Of a DNA stretch of 50,303 nucleotides, positions 6,301 to 28,528 are shown piece after piece (positions within the stretch are counted from its first letter, which is position 1; each line of letters opens with the position of its first letter). The notes below the pieces were generated by a model. It ran no database searches. It was not told where the DNA came from and worked only from the letters and a program-made list of their open reading frames with translations. The stretch comes from an uncultured Bacilli bacterium (GTDB taxonomy: Bacteria > Bacillota_I > Bacilli_A > RF39 > UBA660). Location: assembly GCA_958421325.1 (NCBI GenBank), contig CATZLO010000003.1, forward strand, positions 1-50,303, read 5' to 3'. Position numbers and translations under genes: made by a program.

Positions 6301-6442
6301 AGATTATAAACTTAAAAACACGAAAGATAAAGCCTATATAGAACAGTTAAATGGATATAAAGAAGTAATTACCAACAAATTAAATCTTCCTACTACTTGT
6401 TATTTATATTCGATAATTGCAGAAAAATTCGAAAAAATTTGA
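3347..6442 (+). CDS. addA: ATP-dependent helicase/nuclease AddAB subunit A
   Basis: UvrD/PcrA-type motifs GAGSGKT, LIDEYQDTN, VGDIKQSIYRFRNA, TIHKSKGLEYP and LLYVALTRAREKM. C-terminal nuclease motif GKIDLLLV...IIDYKLK. Confidence 0.92.
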   Translation: MPKFTEEQQLAIDLEGSNILVSAGAGSGKTAVLTERVLRKLKEGTHINELLILTFTNKAALEMKERVRKKLKENKMLDELDLLDSSYITTFDSYSLALVKKYADTIHLSSDITIAEASILDLAKKEILDQLFLEYYDKSPKDFLNLITKYCLKDDKIIKKRILELDSTLDLKLDKNEFINTYISKYYGDEVIDKYIKDFLEFLKSKKDNIINLYEDVRSLTSSKYLEQLEEMFSPFINANSYEELRRTIFTSLPRARTGVDSDSKELRENLTAALKEISDLVIYETIDDIKVSIIKTKEYISIILELVKELDRRFSIYKKENNYYTFMDIEKLAISLVKDNLEIREEVKKSFKEILIDEYQDTNDIQETFISYISEDNVYMVGDIKQSIYRFRNANPAIFKDKYDNYKKNKGGRVIDLAKNFRSRKEVLSDINLFFSHIMDDYLGEADYNNGHAMIFGNMTYEDKAKTSNNNYLDIYTYDTKDKEYSKLEKEAFIIANDIKEKVNSKYLVYDKDLDVLREVEYRDFVILLDRATDFTTYKQVFQYLGLPITLYEDEKTSGSTDLYLLKNFFILAKAIITNKFDSKFKLAFTSIARSFLFSYKDDKIYQTIMNNTYKETSVYIVFKEILENIDKLTPVVYLESLLDKLDYIDKLALIGNIDINSSRMEYFYNLIANLEKSNFTIIDVSDYLEKINDEKLEIKLAISKEDSNSVKIMTIHKSKGLEYPICYFAGFYKDFNKDEYKSNVLFNQDYGIIIDEVDTNNKLITKVLALEKLKQKDISEKIRLLYVALTRAREKMIVVMPNIESNKELRNVVSNYDRLNYTNFAKMVISVASLFKEKIKEIETIKDISKEYLEVKNFFSKADKNIKKIEIIPSVYDNNTKIKETYHKENSDEKTQEEMKLIEIGKNVHTFFERINFIDNKLPYIEDNYYKEKLTKFLNSDFMNKYKEYKKYQEYEFIYQKSNETYHGKIDLLLVGDKEAIIIDYKLKNTKDKAYIEQLNGYKEVITNKLNLPTTCYLYSIIAEKFEKI

Positions 6443-7016: not shown

Positions 7017-7093
7017 GGACCCTTAGCTCAGTTGGTTAGAGCATCCGGCTCATAACCGGACGGTCGATGGTTCGAGTCCATCAGGGTCCACCA
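7017..7093 (+). tRNA. tRNA with anticodon CAT (elongator Met type, or tRNA-Ile2 read via lysidine)
   Basis: Complete cloverleaf folded by eye: acceptor ggaccct/agggtcc, anticodon stem tccgg/ccgga, loop ctCATaa, T-arm gatgg-ttcgagt-ccatc, encoded CCA. Not initiator-like, because pair 1:72 is G-C. Confidence 0.9.
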
Positions 7094-7100
7094 TTATCTT

Positions 7101-7184
7101 GCGGGTATGGCGGAATTGGCAGACGCGCTAGACTTAGGATCTAGTGTCTTAGACGTGCAGGTTCAACTCCTGTTACCCGCACCA
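7101..7184 (+). tRNA. tRNA-Leu (anticodon TAG)
   Basis: Acceptor gcgggta/tacccgc, anticodon stem ctaga/tctag with loop ctTAGga, long variable arm, T-loop ttcaact, encoded CCA. Confidence 0.9.
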
Positions 7185-7224
7185 GTTGCGAATTTGTTCG
7201 AACTATTCGAACTTTGATATAGGG

Positions 7225-15928: not shown

Positions 15929-16612
15929 ATGGCTAAAGTAATCAAGAAGAAGAAATTAAGACTATTACCTTTTCTAATATTTATTATAGCAATTACTATA
16001 ATAGTTTTTACATGCCTATTAATTCTTGATACTAAAGTTAAAAATATTATAATTACTGGTAATGAAGTATTAAGTGATGATGAAATAATAGATTTAGCAG
16101 GACTTACTAATTATCCGAGTTTCTATAAAACTTTAAATATAACTATGAAAAATAATATTACTAAAGAGCCTTTAATAAAAAGTGTTAATATTAATAGAAA
16201 GTTCTATCATATTATAGAAATTAAAGTAGAAGAATATAAAATACTTTATAAAAGAGAGGATAATGGTAAATATGTTTTAGAAAATAATAAAGAGATTACC
16301 CTTTCTAAAAGAACACCTTACACTATACCTAGATTGATTAATGAGATACCTACTAACAAACTAGATATTTTTATAAAATATTTTAAAAGAATAGACTTAA
16401 ATATAAGAGAAAAGATTAGTGAAATAAACTATGTCCCAAATGAATTTGATGATGATAGATTTTTACTTTATATGGATGATGGTAATAGTGTATATATGAC
16501 TATTACTAAATTTGAAAGGCTTAATTATTATAATGATGTATTACCACAGTTAGATGGTAGGAAAGGAATACTTTATTTAGATTCTGGCAACCATTTTCAG
16601 ATAATGGAATAA
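15929..16612 (+). CDS. ftsQ: Cell-division protein FtsQ/DivIB
   Basis: N-terminal basic region, single TM, POTRA-like segment (IIITGNEVLSDDEIIDLAGL). Sits at the end of the mur/dcw block. Confidence 0.75.
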   Translation: MAKVIKKKKLRLLPFLIFIIAITIIVFTCLLILDTKVKNIIITGNEVLSDDEIIDLAGLTNYPSFYKTLNITMKNNITKEPLIKSVNINRKFYHIIEIKVEEYKILYKREDNGKYVLENNKEITLSKRTPYTIPRLINEIPTNKLDIFIKYFKRIDLNIREKISEINYVPNEFDDDRFLLYMDDGNSVYMTITKFERLNYYNDVLPQLDGRKGILYLDSGNHFQIME

Positions 16613-16755: not shown

Positions 16756-18606
16756 ATGAAAAGATTACTATTAGAAACAAGTTTATCTAAAATGTATATA
16801 TTAGTAGTAGGATTAATATCACTATTGATAATGGGGGGATATTTTTCTTATGCTATGTTTACAGTTAGTAAAGAAAAAGATAATGCAATAAGCATAATAA
16901 CGGGAAATTTAACTTATGAGTTATTAGTAGATGGGAAGCAAAGGTTTCAAATAACAATACCTTCTGGTGAAACTGTTACCCACACAATTACATTAACAAA
17001 TACAAGTAGTGTTCCTGCAAAGTTTATACTTTATTATTCTGATAGCAGTATTTATGACGGAGTGACAGTAGGATATGTCAATGAAAATGGTTATAGTATT
17101 CCCCCAGATAAGAATGGAGTTATTTTAAGTGCAGTAGGTACAGCTGGTTCAAGTCAAACATATCGTATAAAAATATCAGGTAATCAGTCTTCAGATAGAC
17201 GTATTTTAGGATTAAGCGTTCAAAGTGGTCTTGATTATAATGAATTAACATTACCAAGTAGTGGGCATACATTTGATGAATATCCGAATTATGCAGCTGA
17301 TATTCTTTTAGCAGATCAAGGAGGAAACGGCAGTACCTATGATGATGGAGTTGATACTTTTATAACAGGAACTGACCCTAATAACTATATATGGTATAGT
17401 GGTAAGTTATGGAGAGCAGTATCTGTTAATAATCAAGCAAAGACAACAAAGTTAGTAACCCAATGGAATATAAGTGCAATTGCATATAACGCGATTCGTA
17501 ATACAGCCTTTGCAGAAAGTTATATGGAAGATTGGTTAAATGATACAACCGTAGATGGCTTTCTAGGTAATTTAAGAGATTGTGAGAATTTCATTGTAAC
17601 CGATGCAGTATGGGATGCGACAATGGATAATACAGCTTTAGGAGGTATAACAAGACCTAATGGAACGACAACAGTAACTTCCCCTATAGGACTTTTGAAT
17701 ATGTATGAATATCAAGAAAGTTTTAGAGGAATAACTTCTAGTAATGGTTATCTAAATAATGGACTTCATTGGTGGACCTTAACACCATATAGTGCGTCTT
17801 ACGTGCGTTACGTTTACTACAGAGGTAACGCGGACTACGGTACTCCGGCCGTGCAGAGCGGTGTCCGCCCGTCTATAAATCTAAAATCTAGCGTTCGTAT
17901 AGTAGATGGGGATGGAACAATAGATAATCCATATCGCTTAGAAGGAGATAATGATACTAATCTTTCAGGAACGCTTCTTTCAAGTAGATATAGCGGAGAA
18001 TACATTCGCTTTGGAAATGATGAAAATACCCTATATAGAATAGTAAGTCATGAAAATGGAACAGGAACAAAGATAACCAGTGCCGAACCCCTAAAGAGTT
18101 CTGGTAAATTTATAGAAAGGACTTTTGGAAGTAATACAACGTTTTCAAGTAATAATATTATAGGAGCATTTTTAAATGGTGACTATCTAACAAATTATGT
18201 AGGAAGTACATATAGTAATATGATAGAAGATAATACAACATGGTATTTAGGAACAGTAGAAGGTGGAAGAAGTTATAGATTAGCAAAATATACAGATACT
18301 GCTATGAGTAGTTTAACTAGTTCAACTACAAATGCCAAAGTAGGATTACTTCGTTTAGGTGAATTAATGGCAGGACAATTTGAAAAATATTTTGAAAATG
18401 GAGGTACTACAGGACTAACAACTGATTATTGGACCTTAACACCACTCGATGCGTCTTACGTGTGTGACGTCAACATCTATGGTTACGGGTCCAACTTTGC
18501 TTCGACCCACGTGGACGGTGTTCGCCCATCTCTAAATCTAAAATCTAACGTGAAGATAACTTCAGGAACAGGTACTAAAACTGATCCGTTTATACTATCT
18601 ATTTAG
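16756..18606 (+). CDS. Secreted or membrane-anchored surface protein with two tandem ~219-aa modules, each ending WWTLTP...GVRPS[IL]NLK
   Basis: N-terminal signal/anchor (YILVVGLISLLIMGGYFSYAMFT), then an Ig-like-looking region and two repeated modules. Each module carries a GC-rich cassette at its C-terminal end (listed separately). Confidence 0.85.
   Translation: MKRLLLETSLSKMYILVVGLISLLIMGGYFSYAMFTVSKEKDNAISIITGNLTYELLVDGKQRFQITIPSGETVTHTITLTNTSSVPAKFILYYSDSSIYDGVTVGYVNENGYSIPPDKNGVILSAVGTAGSSQTYRIKISGNQSSDRRILGLSVQSGLDYNELTLPSSGHTFDEYPNYAADILLADQGGNGSTYDDGVDTFITGTDPNNYIWYSGKLWRAVSVNNQAKTTKLVTQWNISAIAYNAIRNTAFAESYMEDWLNDTTVDGFLGNLRDCENFIVTDAVWDATMDNTALGGITRPNGTTTVTSPIGLLNMYEYQESFRGITSSNGYLNNGLHWWTLTPYSASYVRYVYYRGNADYGTPAVQSGVRPSINLKSSVRIVDGDGTIDNPYRLEGDNDTNLSGTLLSSRYSGEYIRFGNDENTLYRIVSHENGTGTKITSAEPLKSSGKFIERTFGSNTTFSSNNIIGAFLNGDYLTNYVGSTYSNMIEDNTTWYLGTVEGGRSYRLAKYTDTAMSSLTSSTTNAKVGLLRLGELMAGQFEKYFENGGTTGLTTDYWTLTPLDASYVCDVNIYGYGSNFASTHVDGVRPSLNLKSNVKITSGTGTKTDPFILSI
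17770..17890 (+). repeat. GC-rich, adenine-poor cassette 1 (candidate DGR variable region)
   Basis: Encodes WWTLTPYSASYVRYVYYRGNADYGTPAVQSGVRPSINLKS. The core 17788-17874 is about 57% G+C and 18% A by hand count, with codons gcg, cgt, cgc, ccg and gtg. Confidence 0.55.
18427..18547 (+). repeat. GC-rich, adenine-poor cassette 2 (candidate DGR variable region)
   Basis: Encodes YWTLTPLDASYVCDVNIYGYGSNFASTHVDGVRPSLNLKS. Codon-colinear with cassette 1. The core 18445-18531 is about 54% G+C and 16% A by hand count. Confidence 0.55.
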
Positions 18607-18638
18607 TAATATAATTTAAAAAAAGTTGGCAAAAAGAG

Positions 18639-18667
18639 TTGACAAGTGCCAATTTTTTTCATATACT
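18639..18667 (+). promoter_or_regulatory. Sigma-A promoter of the hrcA-grpE-dnaK operon
   Basis: TTGACA (18639-18644), 17-nt spacer, TATACT (18662-18667). Confidence 0.6.
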
Positions 18668-18671
18668 GATA

Positions 18672-18698
18672 TTGGCAATGGAAAAGTGGGAATGCTAA
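18672..18698 (+). promoter_or_regulatory. Degenerate CIRCE-like operator (HrcA site)
   Basis: TTGGCAATG-N9-GAATGCTAA compared with consensus TTAGCACTC-N9-GAGTGCTAA (6/9 and 8/9 matches). It lies immediately downstream of the -10, as expected. Confidence 0.45.
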
Positions 18699-18739
18699 AA
18701 TTAGTATTTAACCAGTTAATCAGTGCTTTGGAGGTAGTT

Positions 18740-19735
18740 ATGCTTAGTGATAGACAAAATAAAATATTAAAATTAATTGTTGAGTCTTATATTAGACAAG
18801 CTAAACCTGTTAGTAGTAATCAGCTCTGTAAAAGGTTAAAATGTTCCAGTGCTACTGTTAGAAGTGAAATGGCAAGTCTTGAAGATTTAGGATTTCTAGA
18901 GAAAACACATACTTCTAGTGGAAGAGTTCCAAGTGAAGAAGGCTATCGTTATTATGTAGATAACTTAATGGAAGCTAGAAAGATGAATGGAGAAGACATG
19001 TTGAAATTACAGATAATTTTCCATAATCAATCATTAGAACTGAGTGATTGTATTAATAAAAGCTTACAAGTTGTCTCTGATATGACTTCTTATACAGCAA
19101 TTGTTTTAGGTAAGACGAGTCATGAGAACTTGCTTAAGGAAGTTAGAGTTGTTCCACTTGATACTAATCATTTAATAGTTATAGTTGTAACTGATAAAGG
19201 TAAAGTAGAGCATAAAAATATTACTTTAAATAATGTTAGTATCGAAGACATTAGGAAGACTGTAGAGTTAATTAATAACTTAATAGTGGGTACACCAATT
19301 GATGAAGTAAGTGCTAAACTAGAGTTTGAAATTAAGCCTATTATCTCTAAATATGTAGAAGGACATCAACAACTATATAATGCCATTTATAATGTCTTTA
19401 ATGATATTACCAATACTGATATTAATGTTGTGGGTAGAACTAAGTTCTTAGAACAGCCTGAGTTTGATAATGTTGATAAAATTAAAGATTTATTCAAGAA
19501 ACTTGATGATGAAGAGATTCTTCAAGGGATAAAAAAAGATGACTCTAATAATATAGAAGTATATATTGGTAGTGAGAACAAATTAGATGATGATGTTACT
19601 ATTATTAAGACTAACTTTAAGACTGATAGTGAAGATGGAACGCTTGCTATCATTGGCCCTAAAAGAATGGAATATGATAGAGTTGTTAGTATTTTGGAGT
19701 ATTTAAAAGAAAATATAGAGAAAGGTAGTGACTAA
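18740..19735 (+). CDS. hrcA: Heat-inducible transcription repressor HrcA
   Basis: MLSDRQNKILKLIVESYI...PVSS N-terminal winged helix, followed by grpE-dnaK. The true start is ATG 18740 (SD GGAGG); the track's 5' extension runs over the promoter. Confidence 0.9.
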   Translation: MLSDRQNKILKLIVESYIRQAKPVSSNQLCKRLKCSSATVRSEMASLEDLGFLEKTHTSSGRVPSEEGYRYYVDNLMEARKMNGEDMLKLQIIFHNQSLELSDCINKSLQVVSDMTSYTAIVLGKTSHENLLKEVRVVPLDTNHLIVIVVTDKGKVEHKNITLNNVSIEDIRKTVELINNLIVGTPIDEVSAKLEFEIKPIISKYVEGHQQLYNAIYNVFNDITNTDINVVGRTKFLEQPEFDNVDKIKDLFKKLDDEEILQGIKKDDSNNIEVYIGSENKLDDDVTIIKTNFKTDSEDGTLAIIGPKRMEYDRVVSILEYLKENIEKGSD

Positions 19736-26835: not shown

Positions 26836-26842
26836 AAACATA

Positions 26843-27118
26843 TCAAATCATTGATGAAAAGAAGTAACTATTTATAATCTTTTATAGAGAACTTGTGGTT
26901 GGTGAAAACAAGTAAAGTGTGAATAGTGAATAACATTTCGGAGTGCTTAAAGAAATTAAGTAGACTAAGCCGGGTGCAAACCGTTACATTTGCTAGAATC
27001 TAAAAGTGATTATAAAGGTTATAACTACATTCTTTATAATAAATTGGGTGGCACCGCGGAAGACTAGTTTCGTCCCATAGTACTATAAGTATTATGGAAC
27101 GAGACTAGTCTTTTATTA
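26843..27118 (+). promoter_or_regulatory. T-box riboswitch leader, probable Asn (AAC) specifier
   Basis: Stem I elements (ttgatgaaaagaagta, AGAGA, ggttggtgaaa). Candidate specifier AAC at 26932-26934. T-box sequence aaattgggtggcaccgcgg at 27041-27059. Terminator agactagtttcgtcccat...atggaacgagactagtc plus ttttatt. Confidence 0.88.
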
Positions 27119-27145: not shown

Positions 27146-28528
27146 ATGGTAATTGATGCAAAAGAATTGTATGAAAAAATTGATGATGATATGGATAAAG
27201 AAGTTATACTAGAAGGTTGGATTAGAAATCATCGCAAACAAAAAGAGTTTGGTTTTATAGATTTTTCTGATGGTACTTGTTTTAAACATATACAAGTTGT
27301 TTATGATAATGAGTTGAGTGACTTTGAAGTAATTCAAAAATATCATGTGGGTAGTGCAATTAAAGTAGTAGGAACAGTAGTTAAATCACCTAAAGAAGGA
27401 CAACCTTTTGAAATACAAGCAAGTGAAGTTATATTACTAGGAGAGTGCCCTGAAGATTATCCAATTCAACCTAAGAAACATTCTCGCGAGTTTTTAAGAG
27501 AACAGTCTTATTTAAGGCCTAGAACTAATTTGTTTCAGGCAGTATTTAGAATTAGAAGTATAGCAGCTTATGCTATTCATAAATATTTTCAAGATAGAGG
27601 CTATGTTTATTTCCATGCTCCATTAATAACTGCAAGTGACTGTGAAGGAGCAGGAGAGATGTTTCATGTTACTTGTTTTGATTTAGAGAATGTTCCTAAA
27701 GAGGATGGTAAAGTAGACTATAATAAAGATATGTTTTCTAAACATGCGTCTTTAACAGTATCTGGGCAGTTAGAAGCAGAGACATTCGCTCTAGCTTACA
27801 AGAAAACATATACTTTTGGTCCAACTTTTAGAGCAGAGAATTCTAATACTAAAGTGCATGCTAATGAGTTTTGGATGATTGAACCTGAAATTGCTTTTTG
27901 TGATCTAAATAGTGATATGGAAATAATGGAAGAGATGTTAAAATATGTAGTTAGTTATGTATTAGAACATTGTAAGGATGAAATGGAATTTTTAGATAAA
28001 TTTGTAGAGAAAGGATTACTTGATAAACTAAATAAGCTAGTTAAATCAAAATTTACTAGAATTACTCATAAAGAAGTTATAGACATATTACAAAAAGCTG
28101 GTGTAAAATGGGAGTTTGATCCTAAACAAGGTGAGGATATTGCTAAAGAACATGAAAAATATATTACAGAATATTTTGATGGACCTGTATTTATTACCGA
28201 TTGGCCTAAAGATATTAAAGCATTCTATATGAAACAAAATCCTGATGGTGAGACAGTTGCAGCAGTTGATCTCGAAGTACCTGGTGCAGGTGAGATAATG
28301 GGTGGATCTCAAAGAGAAGAAAACTACGATAAATTGGTCGCTCGTATGGATGAGTTAGGAATGGATAAAGAAGAACTTGACTGGTATATTAACCTTCGTA
28401 AATACGGTGGCTGTGTTCATTCAGGATTTGGTATGGGATTTGAGAGACTTTTAATTTATTTAACAGGTGTTGAAAATATAAGAGATGTTATACCTTATCC
28501 AAGAACACCTGGTAACTGTGAATTTTAA
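27146..28528 (+). CDS. asnS: Asparagine--tRNA ligase
   Basis: Class IIb aaRS: OB-fold N-terminus, FRAENSNT, GGSQREE, GFGMGFERL. Lies downstream of an AAC-specifier T-box. Confidence 0.93.
   Translation: MVIDAKELYEKIDDDMDKEVILEGWIRNHRKQKEFGFIDFSDGTCFKHIQVVYDNELSDFEVIQKYHVGSAIKVVGTVVKSPKEGQPFEIQASEVILLGECPEDYPIQPKKHSREFLREQSYLRPRTNLFQAVFRIRSIAAYAIHKYFQDRGYVYFHAPLITASDCEGAGEMFHVTCFDLENVPKEDGKVDYNKDMFSKHASLTVSGQLEAETFALAYKKTYTFGPTFRAENSNTKVHANEFWMIEPEIAFCDLNSDMEIMEEMLKYVVSYVLEHCKDEMEFLDKFVEKGLLDKLNKLVKSKFTRITHKEVIDILQKAGVKWEFDPKQGEDIAKEHEKYITEYFDGPVFITDWPKDIKAFYMKQNPDGETVAAVDLEVPGAGEIMGGSQREENYDKLVARMDELGMDKEELDWYINLRKYGGCVHSGFGMGFERLLIYLTGVENIRDVIPYPRTPGNCEF

Follow-up and report, generated by a model that had tools for sequence, protein, structure and literature searches.

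Two likely retroelement-written and now static variable regions in a two-module DUF6273 surface protein of an uncultured Bacilli bacterium

A stretch of 50,303 nt from an uncultured Bacilli bacterium (contig CATZLO010000003.1 of assembly GCA_958421325.1, positions 1 to 50,303; hereafter the window) encodes a predicted membrane-anchored surface protein of 616 aa, whose gene contains two short GC-rich cassettes. In an earlier note made from the sequence alone these cassettes were read as variable regions (VRs) of a diversity-generating retroelement (DGR), i.e. as copies of a template repeat (TR) written with adenine-specific mutagenesis. Our analysis sustains this reading: both cassettes are likely to be VRs written by a DGR, at a locus that is now orphaned or dormant, being devoid of a TR and a reverse transcriptase (RT), and with VRs that have become static. 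In the window we observed the signature of the two VRs and the absence of a TR, an Avd-like gene and an RT, all three of which are found in related genomes, and among strains we observed invariant VRs along with the swapping of whole alleles.

Both cassettes lie within a single open reading frame (ORF; 16756-18606), at equivalent positions of two tandem modules that are, as originally described, only weakly similar (35% identity over 106 aa). The recomputed coordinates and composition agree with those first given: the cassette at 17788-17874 has 57.5% G+C and 17.2% A, and that at 18445-18531, offset by 657 nt, has 54.0% G+C and 16.1% A, as compared with 27.4% G+C and 38% A for the whole window. 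Among all 87-nt segments of the 50 kb, this GC-richness is matched only by an adjacent pair of tRNA-Met and tRNA-Leu genes, and the corresponding GC-rich peak (7041-7216) was ruled out as a TR. The codons of the cassettes are indeed alien to the window. The G+C content at third codon positions is 0.62 in the cassettes versus 0.16 in 33 background ORFs and 0.15 in the remainder of the target gene, with strong over-use of TAC (7/9 versus 0.11 in the background), AAC (3/3 versus 0.17), GAC (3/4 versus 0.10), GCG (3/5 versus 0.06), GTG (4/8 versus 0.07) and CCG (2/3 versus 0.01). The two cassettes are identical at 54 of 87 positions and differ at 33 (a count of 32 had been given), and the three blocks reported as common to both, TGGACCTTAACACCA (15/15), GCGTCTTACGTG (12/12) and TAAATCTAAAATCTA (15/15), proved to be exact.

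The target protein matches the Pfam domain DUF6273 in two stretches (40 bits versus a cut-off of 23.5), and VR1 forms the end of the better one; the DUF1566-type frame suggested in the earlier note was not borne out. The literature on gut phages and on Faecalibacterium prophages presents DUF6273 as a C-lectin-like domain targeted by DGRs, the C-terminal end of which holds the VR (PMC11792537). A total of 3142 homologues of the target protein were detected, mostly in gut metagenome assemblies; those with a name belong to the genus Candidatus Onthousia (Bacilli incertae sedis). An exact look-up of the protein itself in assemblies returned no record. When the best 120 of the 3142 (62-83% identity) are aligned, the entropy of the columns rises to 2.0-2.3 bits at aa 349-368 and 569-588, i.e. 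within the two cassettes, and nowhere else exceeds 1.6 bits. In both of these peaks, invariant V, R, V, G, A, G, R and P are interspersed with hypervariable columns. For VR1, the variable columns comprise 1318 residues in these 120 homologues, of which 1297 (98%) can be reached from AAY codons (AAC or AAT) by changing adenines only. The nucleotide framework GTGCGT NNN GTN NNC NNC NNN GGT NNC GCG ... GGYGTCCGSCC recurs in relatives at only 65% overall identity, and the two-module, two-VR architecture is conserved in more than 100 full-length homologues (62-83% identity), with several paralogues of the family per genome in different contexts. This combination of nucleotide framework and residue spectrum is the footprint that would be expected of mutagenic retrohoming by a DGR.

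A template was predicted from the VRs, and its pattern (GTN AAY AAY NNN GGT AAY GCG AAY AAY) was scanned for in one genome per GTDB species; the fuller pattern expected of the window's own TR runs ACGTCT-AAC-GTG-CGT-AAY-GTN-(AAY)3-GGT-AAC-GCG, followed by CATTTCCTYTTAAA. The first scan returned 24 loci (loci are given by L numbers), among them A-rich copies of the cassette, i.e. TRs, at L009, L017, L019, L021 and L025, in metagenome-assembled genomes (MAGs) of low-GC Bacilli ('Tenericutes'), and a second scan yielded further TRs. In the four Bacilli loci in which the target gene is covered, the TR lies ~115-120 nt 3' of the stop codon of a two-VR DUF6273 gene. Across the Bacilli loci, TR-VR mismatches affect 64 of 146 adenines versus 23 of 346 other bases (p=4e-21); most of these 23 sit at the 5' edge of the homology, and in L019 none of the 47 never-A positions is mismatched (never-A positions being those at which no related TR has adenine). 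Both VRs of each genome reproduce the framework of that genome's own TR. The homology between TR and VR ends at a GC-rich GGYGYYCGSC block, followed by a flank that is either VR-specific (CNTCNNTAAATCTAAAATCTA) or TR-specific (CATTTCCTYTTAAAMCTAG). This is the place that the earlier note had tentatively assigned to an element like the one for initiation of mutagenic homing (IMH), and the flank after the GC-rich block is a candidate for such a function.

In L017, L025 and L030-L033 the TR is followed, in this order, by a small ORF of 111-115 aa without a Pfam match, an Avd-like gene and an RT gene. The Avd-like ORF (113-114 aa) overlaps the start of the RT and matches bAvd over its full length, albeit weakly (E=0.007, 17 bits versus a cut-off of 40). 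The RT (311-316 aa) matches RVT_1 with E=2.6e-20 and contains IGNYTSQ at residue 199 as well as YMDD. The small ORF may represent an additional accessory factor of this DGR lineage. The cassettes of L017, L025, L030, L031 and L033 show both the RT motifs and the adenine-specific TR-VR pair that are expected of a complete DGR. The cassette of L030 is placed among housekeeping genes on a 1.29-Mb contig. The TR 3' pattern found no match among viral contigs, a result that speaks against carriage of such a cassette by phages. Between L030 and L031, which represent strains of the same species, 34 nt differences fall within the two VRs as against 4 outside them in the 3' 1.1 kb, a contrast that serves as a positive control for what appears from the sequences to be an active element.

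The other loci of the first scan are mostly DGRs of Clostridia, Lachnospiraceae, Bacteroidota, Kiritimatiellae and further groups with a very similar TR core and an adjacent RT. The GC-rich non-A scaffold is thus widely common to this class of DGR templates, and the VRs therefore look foreign at 27% G+C. Across loci L005-L028 the DGRs have nearly the same core, AAT GTS AAC AAC AAY GGT AAY GCG AAC AAY AAC AAC GCT TCN AAC ... GGC GTK CGY CC, in MAGs assigned to Clostridia, Lachnospiraceae, Erysipelotrichaceae, Muribaculaceae, Fermentimonas and Kiritimatiellae. No difference separates L005 from L027 over the examined stretch despite their assignment to different phyla, which suggests either an element that is mobile and probably carried by phages or an artefact of binning. 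The TR unit itself resembles a separate small transcription unit (L029:11837-12344, L030:8926-9348), with a terminator hairpin after the target, the TR, a conserved spacer of ~200 nt and a second hairpin with a T-run (ACGTCAA...TTGACG TTTTTTT) that precedes the accessory genes; an Rfam search of the TR-spacer region of L030 returned no family. A lone TR unit is present in L009 (4332-4702; OZ006970.1, a circular 1.52-Mb Bacilli MAG), showing adenine-specific mismatches to the VRs of the adjacent target. It has no Avd, RT or orf112 match within ~3.4 kb on either side and is flanked by a convergent VTT-domain gene and a polysaccharide deacetylase gene. In this genome either TR and RT are unlinked or the DGR is half-degraded.

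The absence of a TR and an RT noted earlier holds for the window's own locus but not for its relatives, in which the TR is present even in the syntenic slot. In L021 and L029, whose flanks are 88% identical to the window, the order PGM-MurG-MurB-FtsQ-target is followed by a terminator hairpin and the TR, and in L029 and L030 hairpin and TR occupy the position matching 18607..18740 of the window. In the window, as in L034, L045 and L047, hrcA lies directly 3' of the target, and the slot between the dcw cluster and hrcA recognized earlier is supported by FtsQ/DivIB-hrcA synteny in annotated relatives. No third cassette or TR was found in the 50,303-nt window by a 3-mismatch pattern search, repeat finding and sensitive blastn with 12 TRs of relatives, which matched only VR1 and VR2 (E=1.2e-6 for VR1 with the TRs of L041 and L019, and E=5e-5 for VR2, of which the same TRs cover 18452-18526). 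A 31-nt AT-rich match to the downstream flank of the TR at 6325-6355 (E=2e-5) has no GC-rich core upstream and was regarded as chance. Homologues of the RT, the Avd-like protein and orf112 were not found in the window by phmmer among six-frame ORFs of at least 50 aa; the RT search was sensitive enough to pick up distant DGR RTs in other loci. We infer that the genome of the window would have no active cognate DGR elsewhere either.

In spite of this absence, the two VRs bear the mark of adenine-specific writing. As judged with the TRs of relatives in place of the cognate one, they differ at 19 of the 28 positions that are A in related TRs versus 8 of the 47 that are never A (p=1.5e-5, a tenfold enrichment). 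Taken together with the DUF6273 domain, the hypervariability, the AAY spectrum and the TR and RT in relatives, this result upholds the original identification of the cassettes as DGR VRs.

The VRs of the window are static in the close relatives of the allele that were compared. The 90% cluster of the target protein comprises five further full or nearly full-length sequences from ~15 contigs, and both VRs are identical in all of them (P0121-P0124 and P0127), the substitutions R63G, A130S, S146L, S154N and H338Y lying outside the VRs. In L045-L049, which come from independent human-gut studies, there are no differences in the 174 nt of the VRs and 1-3 in the remaining gene. Hypervariability among close strains, such as separates L030 from L031 at 34 VR positions, was not found for the cassettes of the window. 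The earlier note had named invariant cassettes in orthologues as a finding that would speak against its reading; the invariance seen within this allele lineage does argue against ongoing diversification but leaves the DGR origin unaffected.

On the other hand, the alleles as a whole do change. L034 has flanks 99-100% identical to those of the window, whereas the stretch 17400-18560 is only 59-87% identical; conversely, the flanks of L047 and L048 differ from the window by 5-11%, yet these loci carry a nearly identical allele (3 nt differences). The two contrasts point to an exchange of alleles between strains as well as between species-level lineages. Alleles P0002-P0010 have identical N-terminal 225 aa and C-terminal tails and are mosaic across both modules, and their VR frameworks differ at non-A positions (e.g. 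GGC GTC CGG versus GGT GTC CGC), so that one TR cannot maintain them all. This pattern of allele replacement indicates that the present variation at the locus is due to recombinational replacement of the two-module region rather than to retrohoming. The stretch 17400-18560 stands out as a recombination hot spot.

The course of events that we propose would begin with a single DGR template repeat, from which the C-terminal VR of each DUF6273 module (~85 nt) would have been written by mutagenic retrohoming. The non-A bases of the template, which are GC-rich and conserved in the family, would be copied faithfully, and its AAC and AAT codons randomised. Such a faithful GC-rich scaffold with randomised AAY codons would make the cassettes rich in G+C and poor in A, and would give them their NNC codons as well as synonymous codons alien to a genome of 27% G+C. 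Related genomes would have kept the template 3' of the target, some of them together with the small ORF, the Avd-like gene and the RT, and the cassette would have gone from the slot of the window. The VRs would then have been frozen, as suggested by their identity in independent hosts and diverged backgrounds and by some non-A differences, and strains and species would now come to differ at the locus through recombinational replacement of the entire two-module region.

Several points weigh against this explanation. The window covers 50 kb of a genome of ~1.3-1.5 Mb, and a cognate TR and RT may sit elsewhere in it. The cognate TR was not among 17 TRs obtained from the genome and metagenome scans, and even the best of these (L019, L041) show 9-10 non-A mismatches (of 47-48) to each VR of the window. 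The contrast between the window and the active control rests on small counts (p=0.003), and the invariance could in part reflect the recent spread of one allele rather than a loss of the machinery. The C-lectin fold received no support from AlphaFold2, whose models are of low confidence (pLDDT, the predicted local distance difference test score, is 48 for the full protein with a 115-sequence alignment and 39 for module 1 alone), the alignments being too shallow in diversity, nor was any PDB sequence matched in a profile search with E up to 10. Moderate confidence was reached only for an N-terminal helix (aa 2-43) and for beta-strands of a beta-sandwich domain (aa 54-158).

Some of these points would be met if the target were remote but active, i.e. 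if a cognate TR, Avd and RT beside a paralogue elsewhere in the chromosome rewrote both VRs in trans, and the strains shared a VR state that had recently spread or been strongly selected. For non-phage DGRs, targets that lie more than 100 kb away from the RT are on record, each genome has several paralogues of the target family in different contexts, the RT-less TR unit in the circular genome of L009 implies that unlinked or partly lost arrangements exist in the clade, and the differences between VR1 and VR2 are still concentrated at TR adenine positions. We nevertheless regard an active remote target as doubtful, given that the VRs show no difference across independent human samples and across backgrounds with flanks 5-11% apart, with 1-3 substitutions in the remaining gene, that the active relative puts 34 of its 38 differences into the VRs, that alleles of the same species have different non-A frameworks, and that never-A differences amount to 8/47 as compared with 0-4/47 at loci with a cognate TR. 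The same 8 differences lend support to a caveat already raised in the earlier note, namely that the cassettes could be a fossil or derive from separate TRs. If VR1 and VR2 had been written from two templates, in different donors or at different times, the gene would be a recombinant mosaic. This would agree with the mosaic recombination of module segments evident among alleles and with the frameworks of the 3' halves (ACT CCG GCC GTG CAG AGC in VR1 versus GCT TCG ACC CAC GTG GAC in VR2), VR2 being close to the L001/L002 type (TCG ACC NAC GCG NAC) and VR1 to the L019 type (AGT CCG NCN). Yet the 5' two-thirds of both VRs have the same framework, one TR framework serves both VRs wherever they were recovered in relatives together with their cognate TR, and drift after the loss of homing accounts equally well for the 8 non-A differences; two templates thus appear decidedly improbable. 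An origin without any DGR, by horizontal transfer of GC-rich segments or by inter-module gene conversion with diversifying selection on a binding loop, is hardly credible. While whole-module allele exchange does occur at the locus, such an origin leaves unexplained the changes at codon positions 1 and 2 with C or T kept at position 3, the 98% AAY-reachable spectrum, the A-rich TRs with adenine-specific mismatches and an adjacent RT in relatives, and the genome-specific concerted frameworks of VR1, VR2 and TR.

Thus, a DGR origin followed by orphaning or dormancy remains the likely explanation. Whether it can be extended to a scenario in which the human-gut lineage lost its DGR machinery, and the frozen two-VR cassettes act as a standing library exchanged by homologous recombination at the FtsQ-hrcA slot among strains and even across species-level lineages, is a possibility that we put forward only tentatively.

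The features considered here are collected in Table 1. The TR counterpart of the 3' flank of VR1 differs from it, reading CATTTCCTTTTAAAMCTAG. By its architecture the target protein is a putative ligand-binding protein, with the VR surface as the binding site.

Table 1. Features of the target gene, its VRs and its surroundings (window coordinates unless a locus is named)
Feature	Coordinates	Strand	Evidence
Probable DGR target gene, 616-aa surface protein anchored in the membrane, two DUF6273 modules with a VR at the end of each	16756..18606	+	ORF, Pfam
Putative N-terminal hydrophobic anchor/signal segment (aa 1-35), MKRLLLETSLSKMYILVVGLISLLIMGGYFSYAMF	16756..16860	+	sequence; predicted helix aa 2-43
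Module 1, strongest match to DUF6273 (aa 247-378), C-terminal end formed by VR1	17494..17889	+	Pfam
5' frame block of VR1, TGGACCTTAACACCA (WTLTP), conserved, outside the TR homology	17773..17787	+	TRs of relatives do not match the block
VR1, homologous to TRs of related DGRs, ends in GGTGTCCGCC	17784..17869	+	blastn, registered comparison, entropy peak aa 349-368
3' flank of VR1, CGTCTATAAATCTAAAATCTAGCGT, candidate IMH-like element	17870..17894	+	nucleotides conserved in both VRs and in relatives
5' frame block of VR2, TGGACCTTAACACCA, conserved	18430..18444	+	
VR2, homologous to related TRs, ends in GGTGTTCGCC	18441..18526	+	blastn, registered comparison, entropy peak aa 569-588
3' flank of VR2, CATCTCTAAATCTAAAATCTAACGT, candidate IMH-like element	18527..18551	+	conserved; function putative
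Intergenic region from target to hrcA, site of the TR unit in related genomes, none here	18607..18740	+	sequence
FtsQ/DivIB gene, upstream border of the slot	15929..16612	+	99-100% identical annotated loci L034, L045
hrcA, downstream border of the slot	18741..19735	+	annotated relatives
tRNA-Met (CAT) and tRNA-Leu (TAG), adjacent	7017-7184	+	
ORF of 111-115 aa in relatives	L025:6341-6679; L017:1311-1658; L030:9348-9683	-; -; +	

Among the closest known counterparts are the phage and prophage DUF6273 targets, i.e. the tentaclins and those of the Faecalibacterium prophages Lelie, Roos and Pioen, which have the same Pfam domain, a VR at the C-terminal end and a very similar scaffold encoded by VR and TR (N V N N N G N A N N N ... 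N G V R P). Unlike these, the target in the window is a chromosomal, membrane-anchored cellular protein with two modules and two VRs, encoded not in a phage tail module but in the slot bordered by dcw-cluster genes and hrcA, and without a TR or RT at the locus. Chromosomal DGRs that serve paralogous surface genes, some of them distant from the RT, are known from the Treponema denticola TvpA family, Legionella LdtA and Lineage 4 (Wu et al. 2018). In contrast to these, the frame is DUF6273 rather than FGE-sulfatase/TvpA or DUF1566, there are two VRs per target, the order is target, TR, small ORF, Avd-like gene and RT, and the VRs of the window appear static. Two VRs in one ORF, which in a conserved chromosomal slot were considered unusual in the earlier note, and remote targets are both already documented: 31 DGRs are on record as having several VRs within one ORF (Yan et al. 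2019, PMC6642488), likewise with more than one VR written from one TR in a single target ORF, the difference being that here the two VRs occupy equivalent places of duplicated domains, 657 nt apart. With the DGR of Bordetella phage BPP-1 (Mtd, TR, Avd, Brt) the system shares the adenine-specific transfer from TR to VR, a GC-rich end of the homology followed by a VR-specific flank (analogous to IMH/IMH*), a small accessory protein resembling Avd, and the [LIV]GxxxSQ motif in the RT. The Avd match of the relatives lies below the Pfam cut-off (17 versus 40 bits). The order in BPP-1 is avd-TR-brt, whereas in the relatives the TR is upstream of the avd-like gene, an extra ORF of 111-115 aa is present and the target is cellular.

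Some further observations concern the surroundings of the target gene. The region upstream of hrcA (18620-18700) contains the imperfect palindromes TTGGCA-N15-TGCCAA and TTGGCAATGG...GCTAA, which may, by their sequence, be operator sites of the CIRCE type (controlling inverted repeat of chaperone expression). Some strains of the same species lose similarity to the window 13 or 34 nt past the stop codon of the target, and their contigs stop shortly beyond (L036:7838-7892; L048:3568-3621; L049:1995-2056). The junction in L048 and L049 falls within the first palindrome, and that in L036 corresponds to the termini of an IS66-family element present in L001. None of the three junctions is a TR, that of L036 being an IS66-type end; their variety marks the site as an insertion hot spot. 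Farther downstream a T-box leader (141 bits; 26842-27080, + strand) precedes an ORF of 460 aa (27146-28528).

Overall, no new mechanism is invoked. What sets this system apart is the conserved two-module, two-VR design, together with the gene order target-TR-ORF-Avd-RT and, at a housekeeping slot, an orphaned and seemingly frozen condition. The compositional anomaly finds an explanation, the alien codons at 27% G+C being the likely footprint of a retroelement template, and a template predicted from the VRs alone recovers real TR/RT cassettes in public genomes. The study also brings to light an extensive family of surface proteins with two VRs, counting more than 3000 homologues, among uncultured gut Bacilli with small genomes; the proteins of this family are plausibly adhesins or receptors. 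The loci of this family occur in three states (active, TR-only and fully orphaned) and offer a natural series for the loss and replacement of DGRs. If the scenario of a standing library is true, the window would record an evolutionary hand-over from mutagenic retrohoming to recombination-based variation of a bacterial surface.

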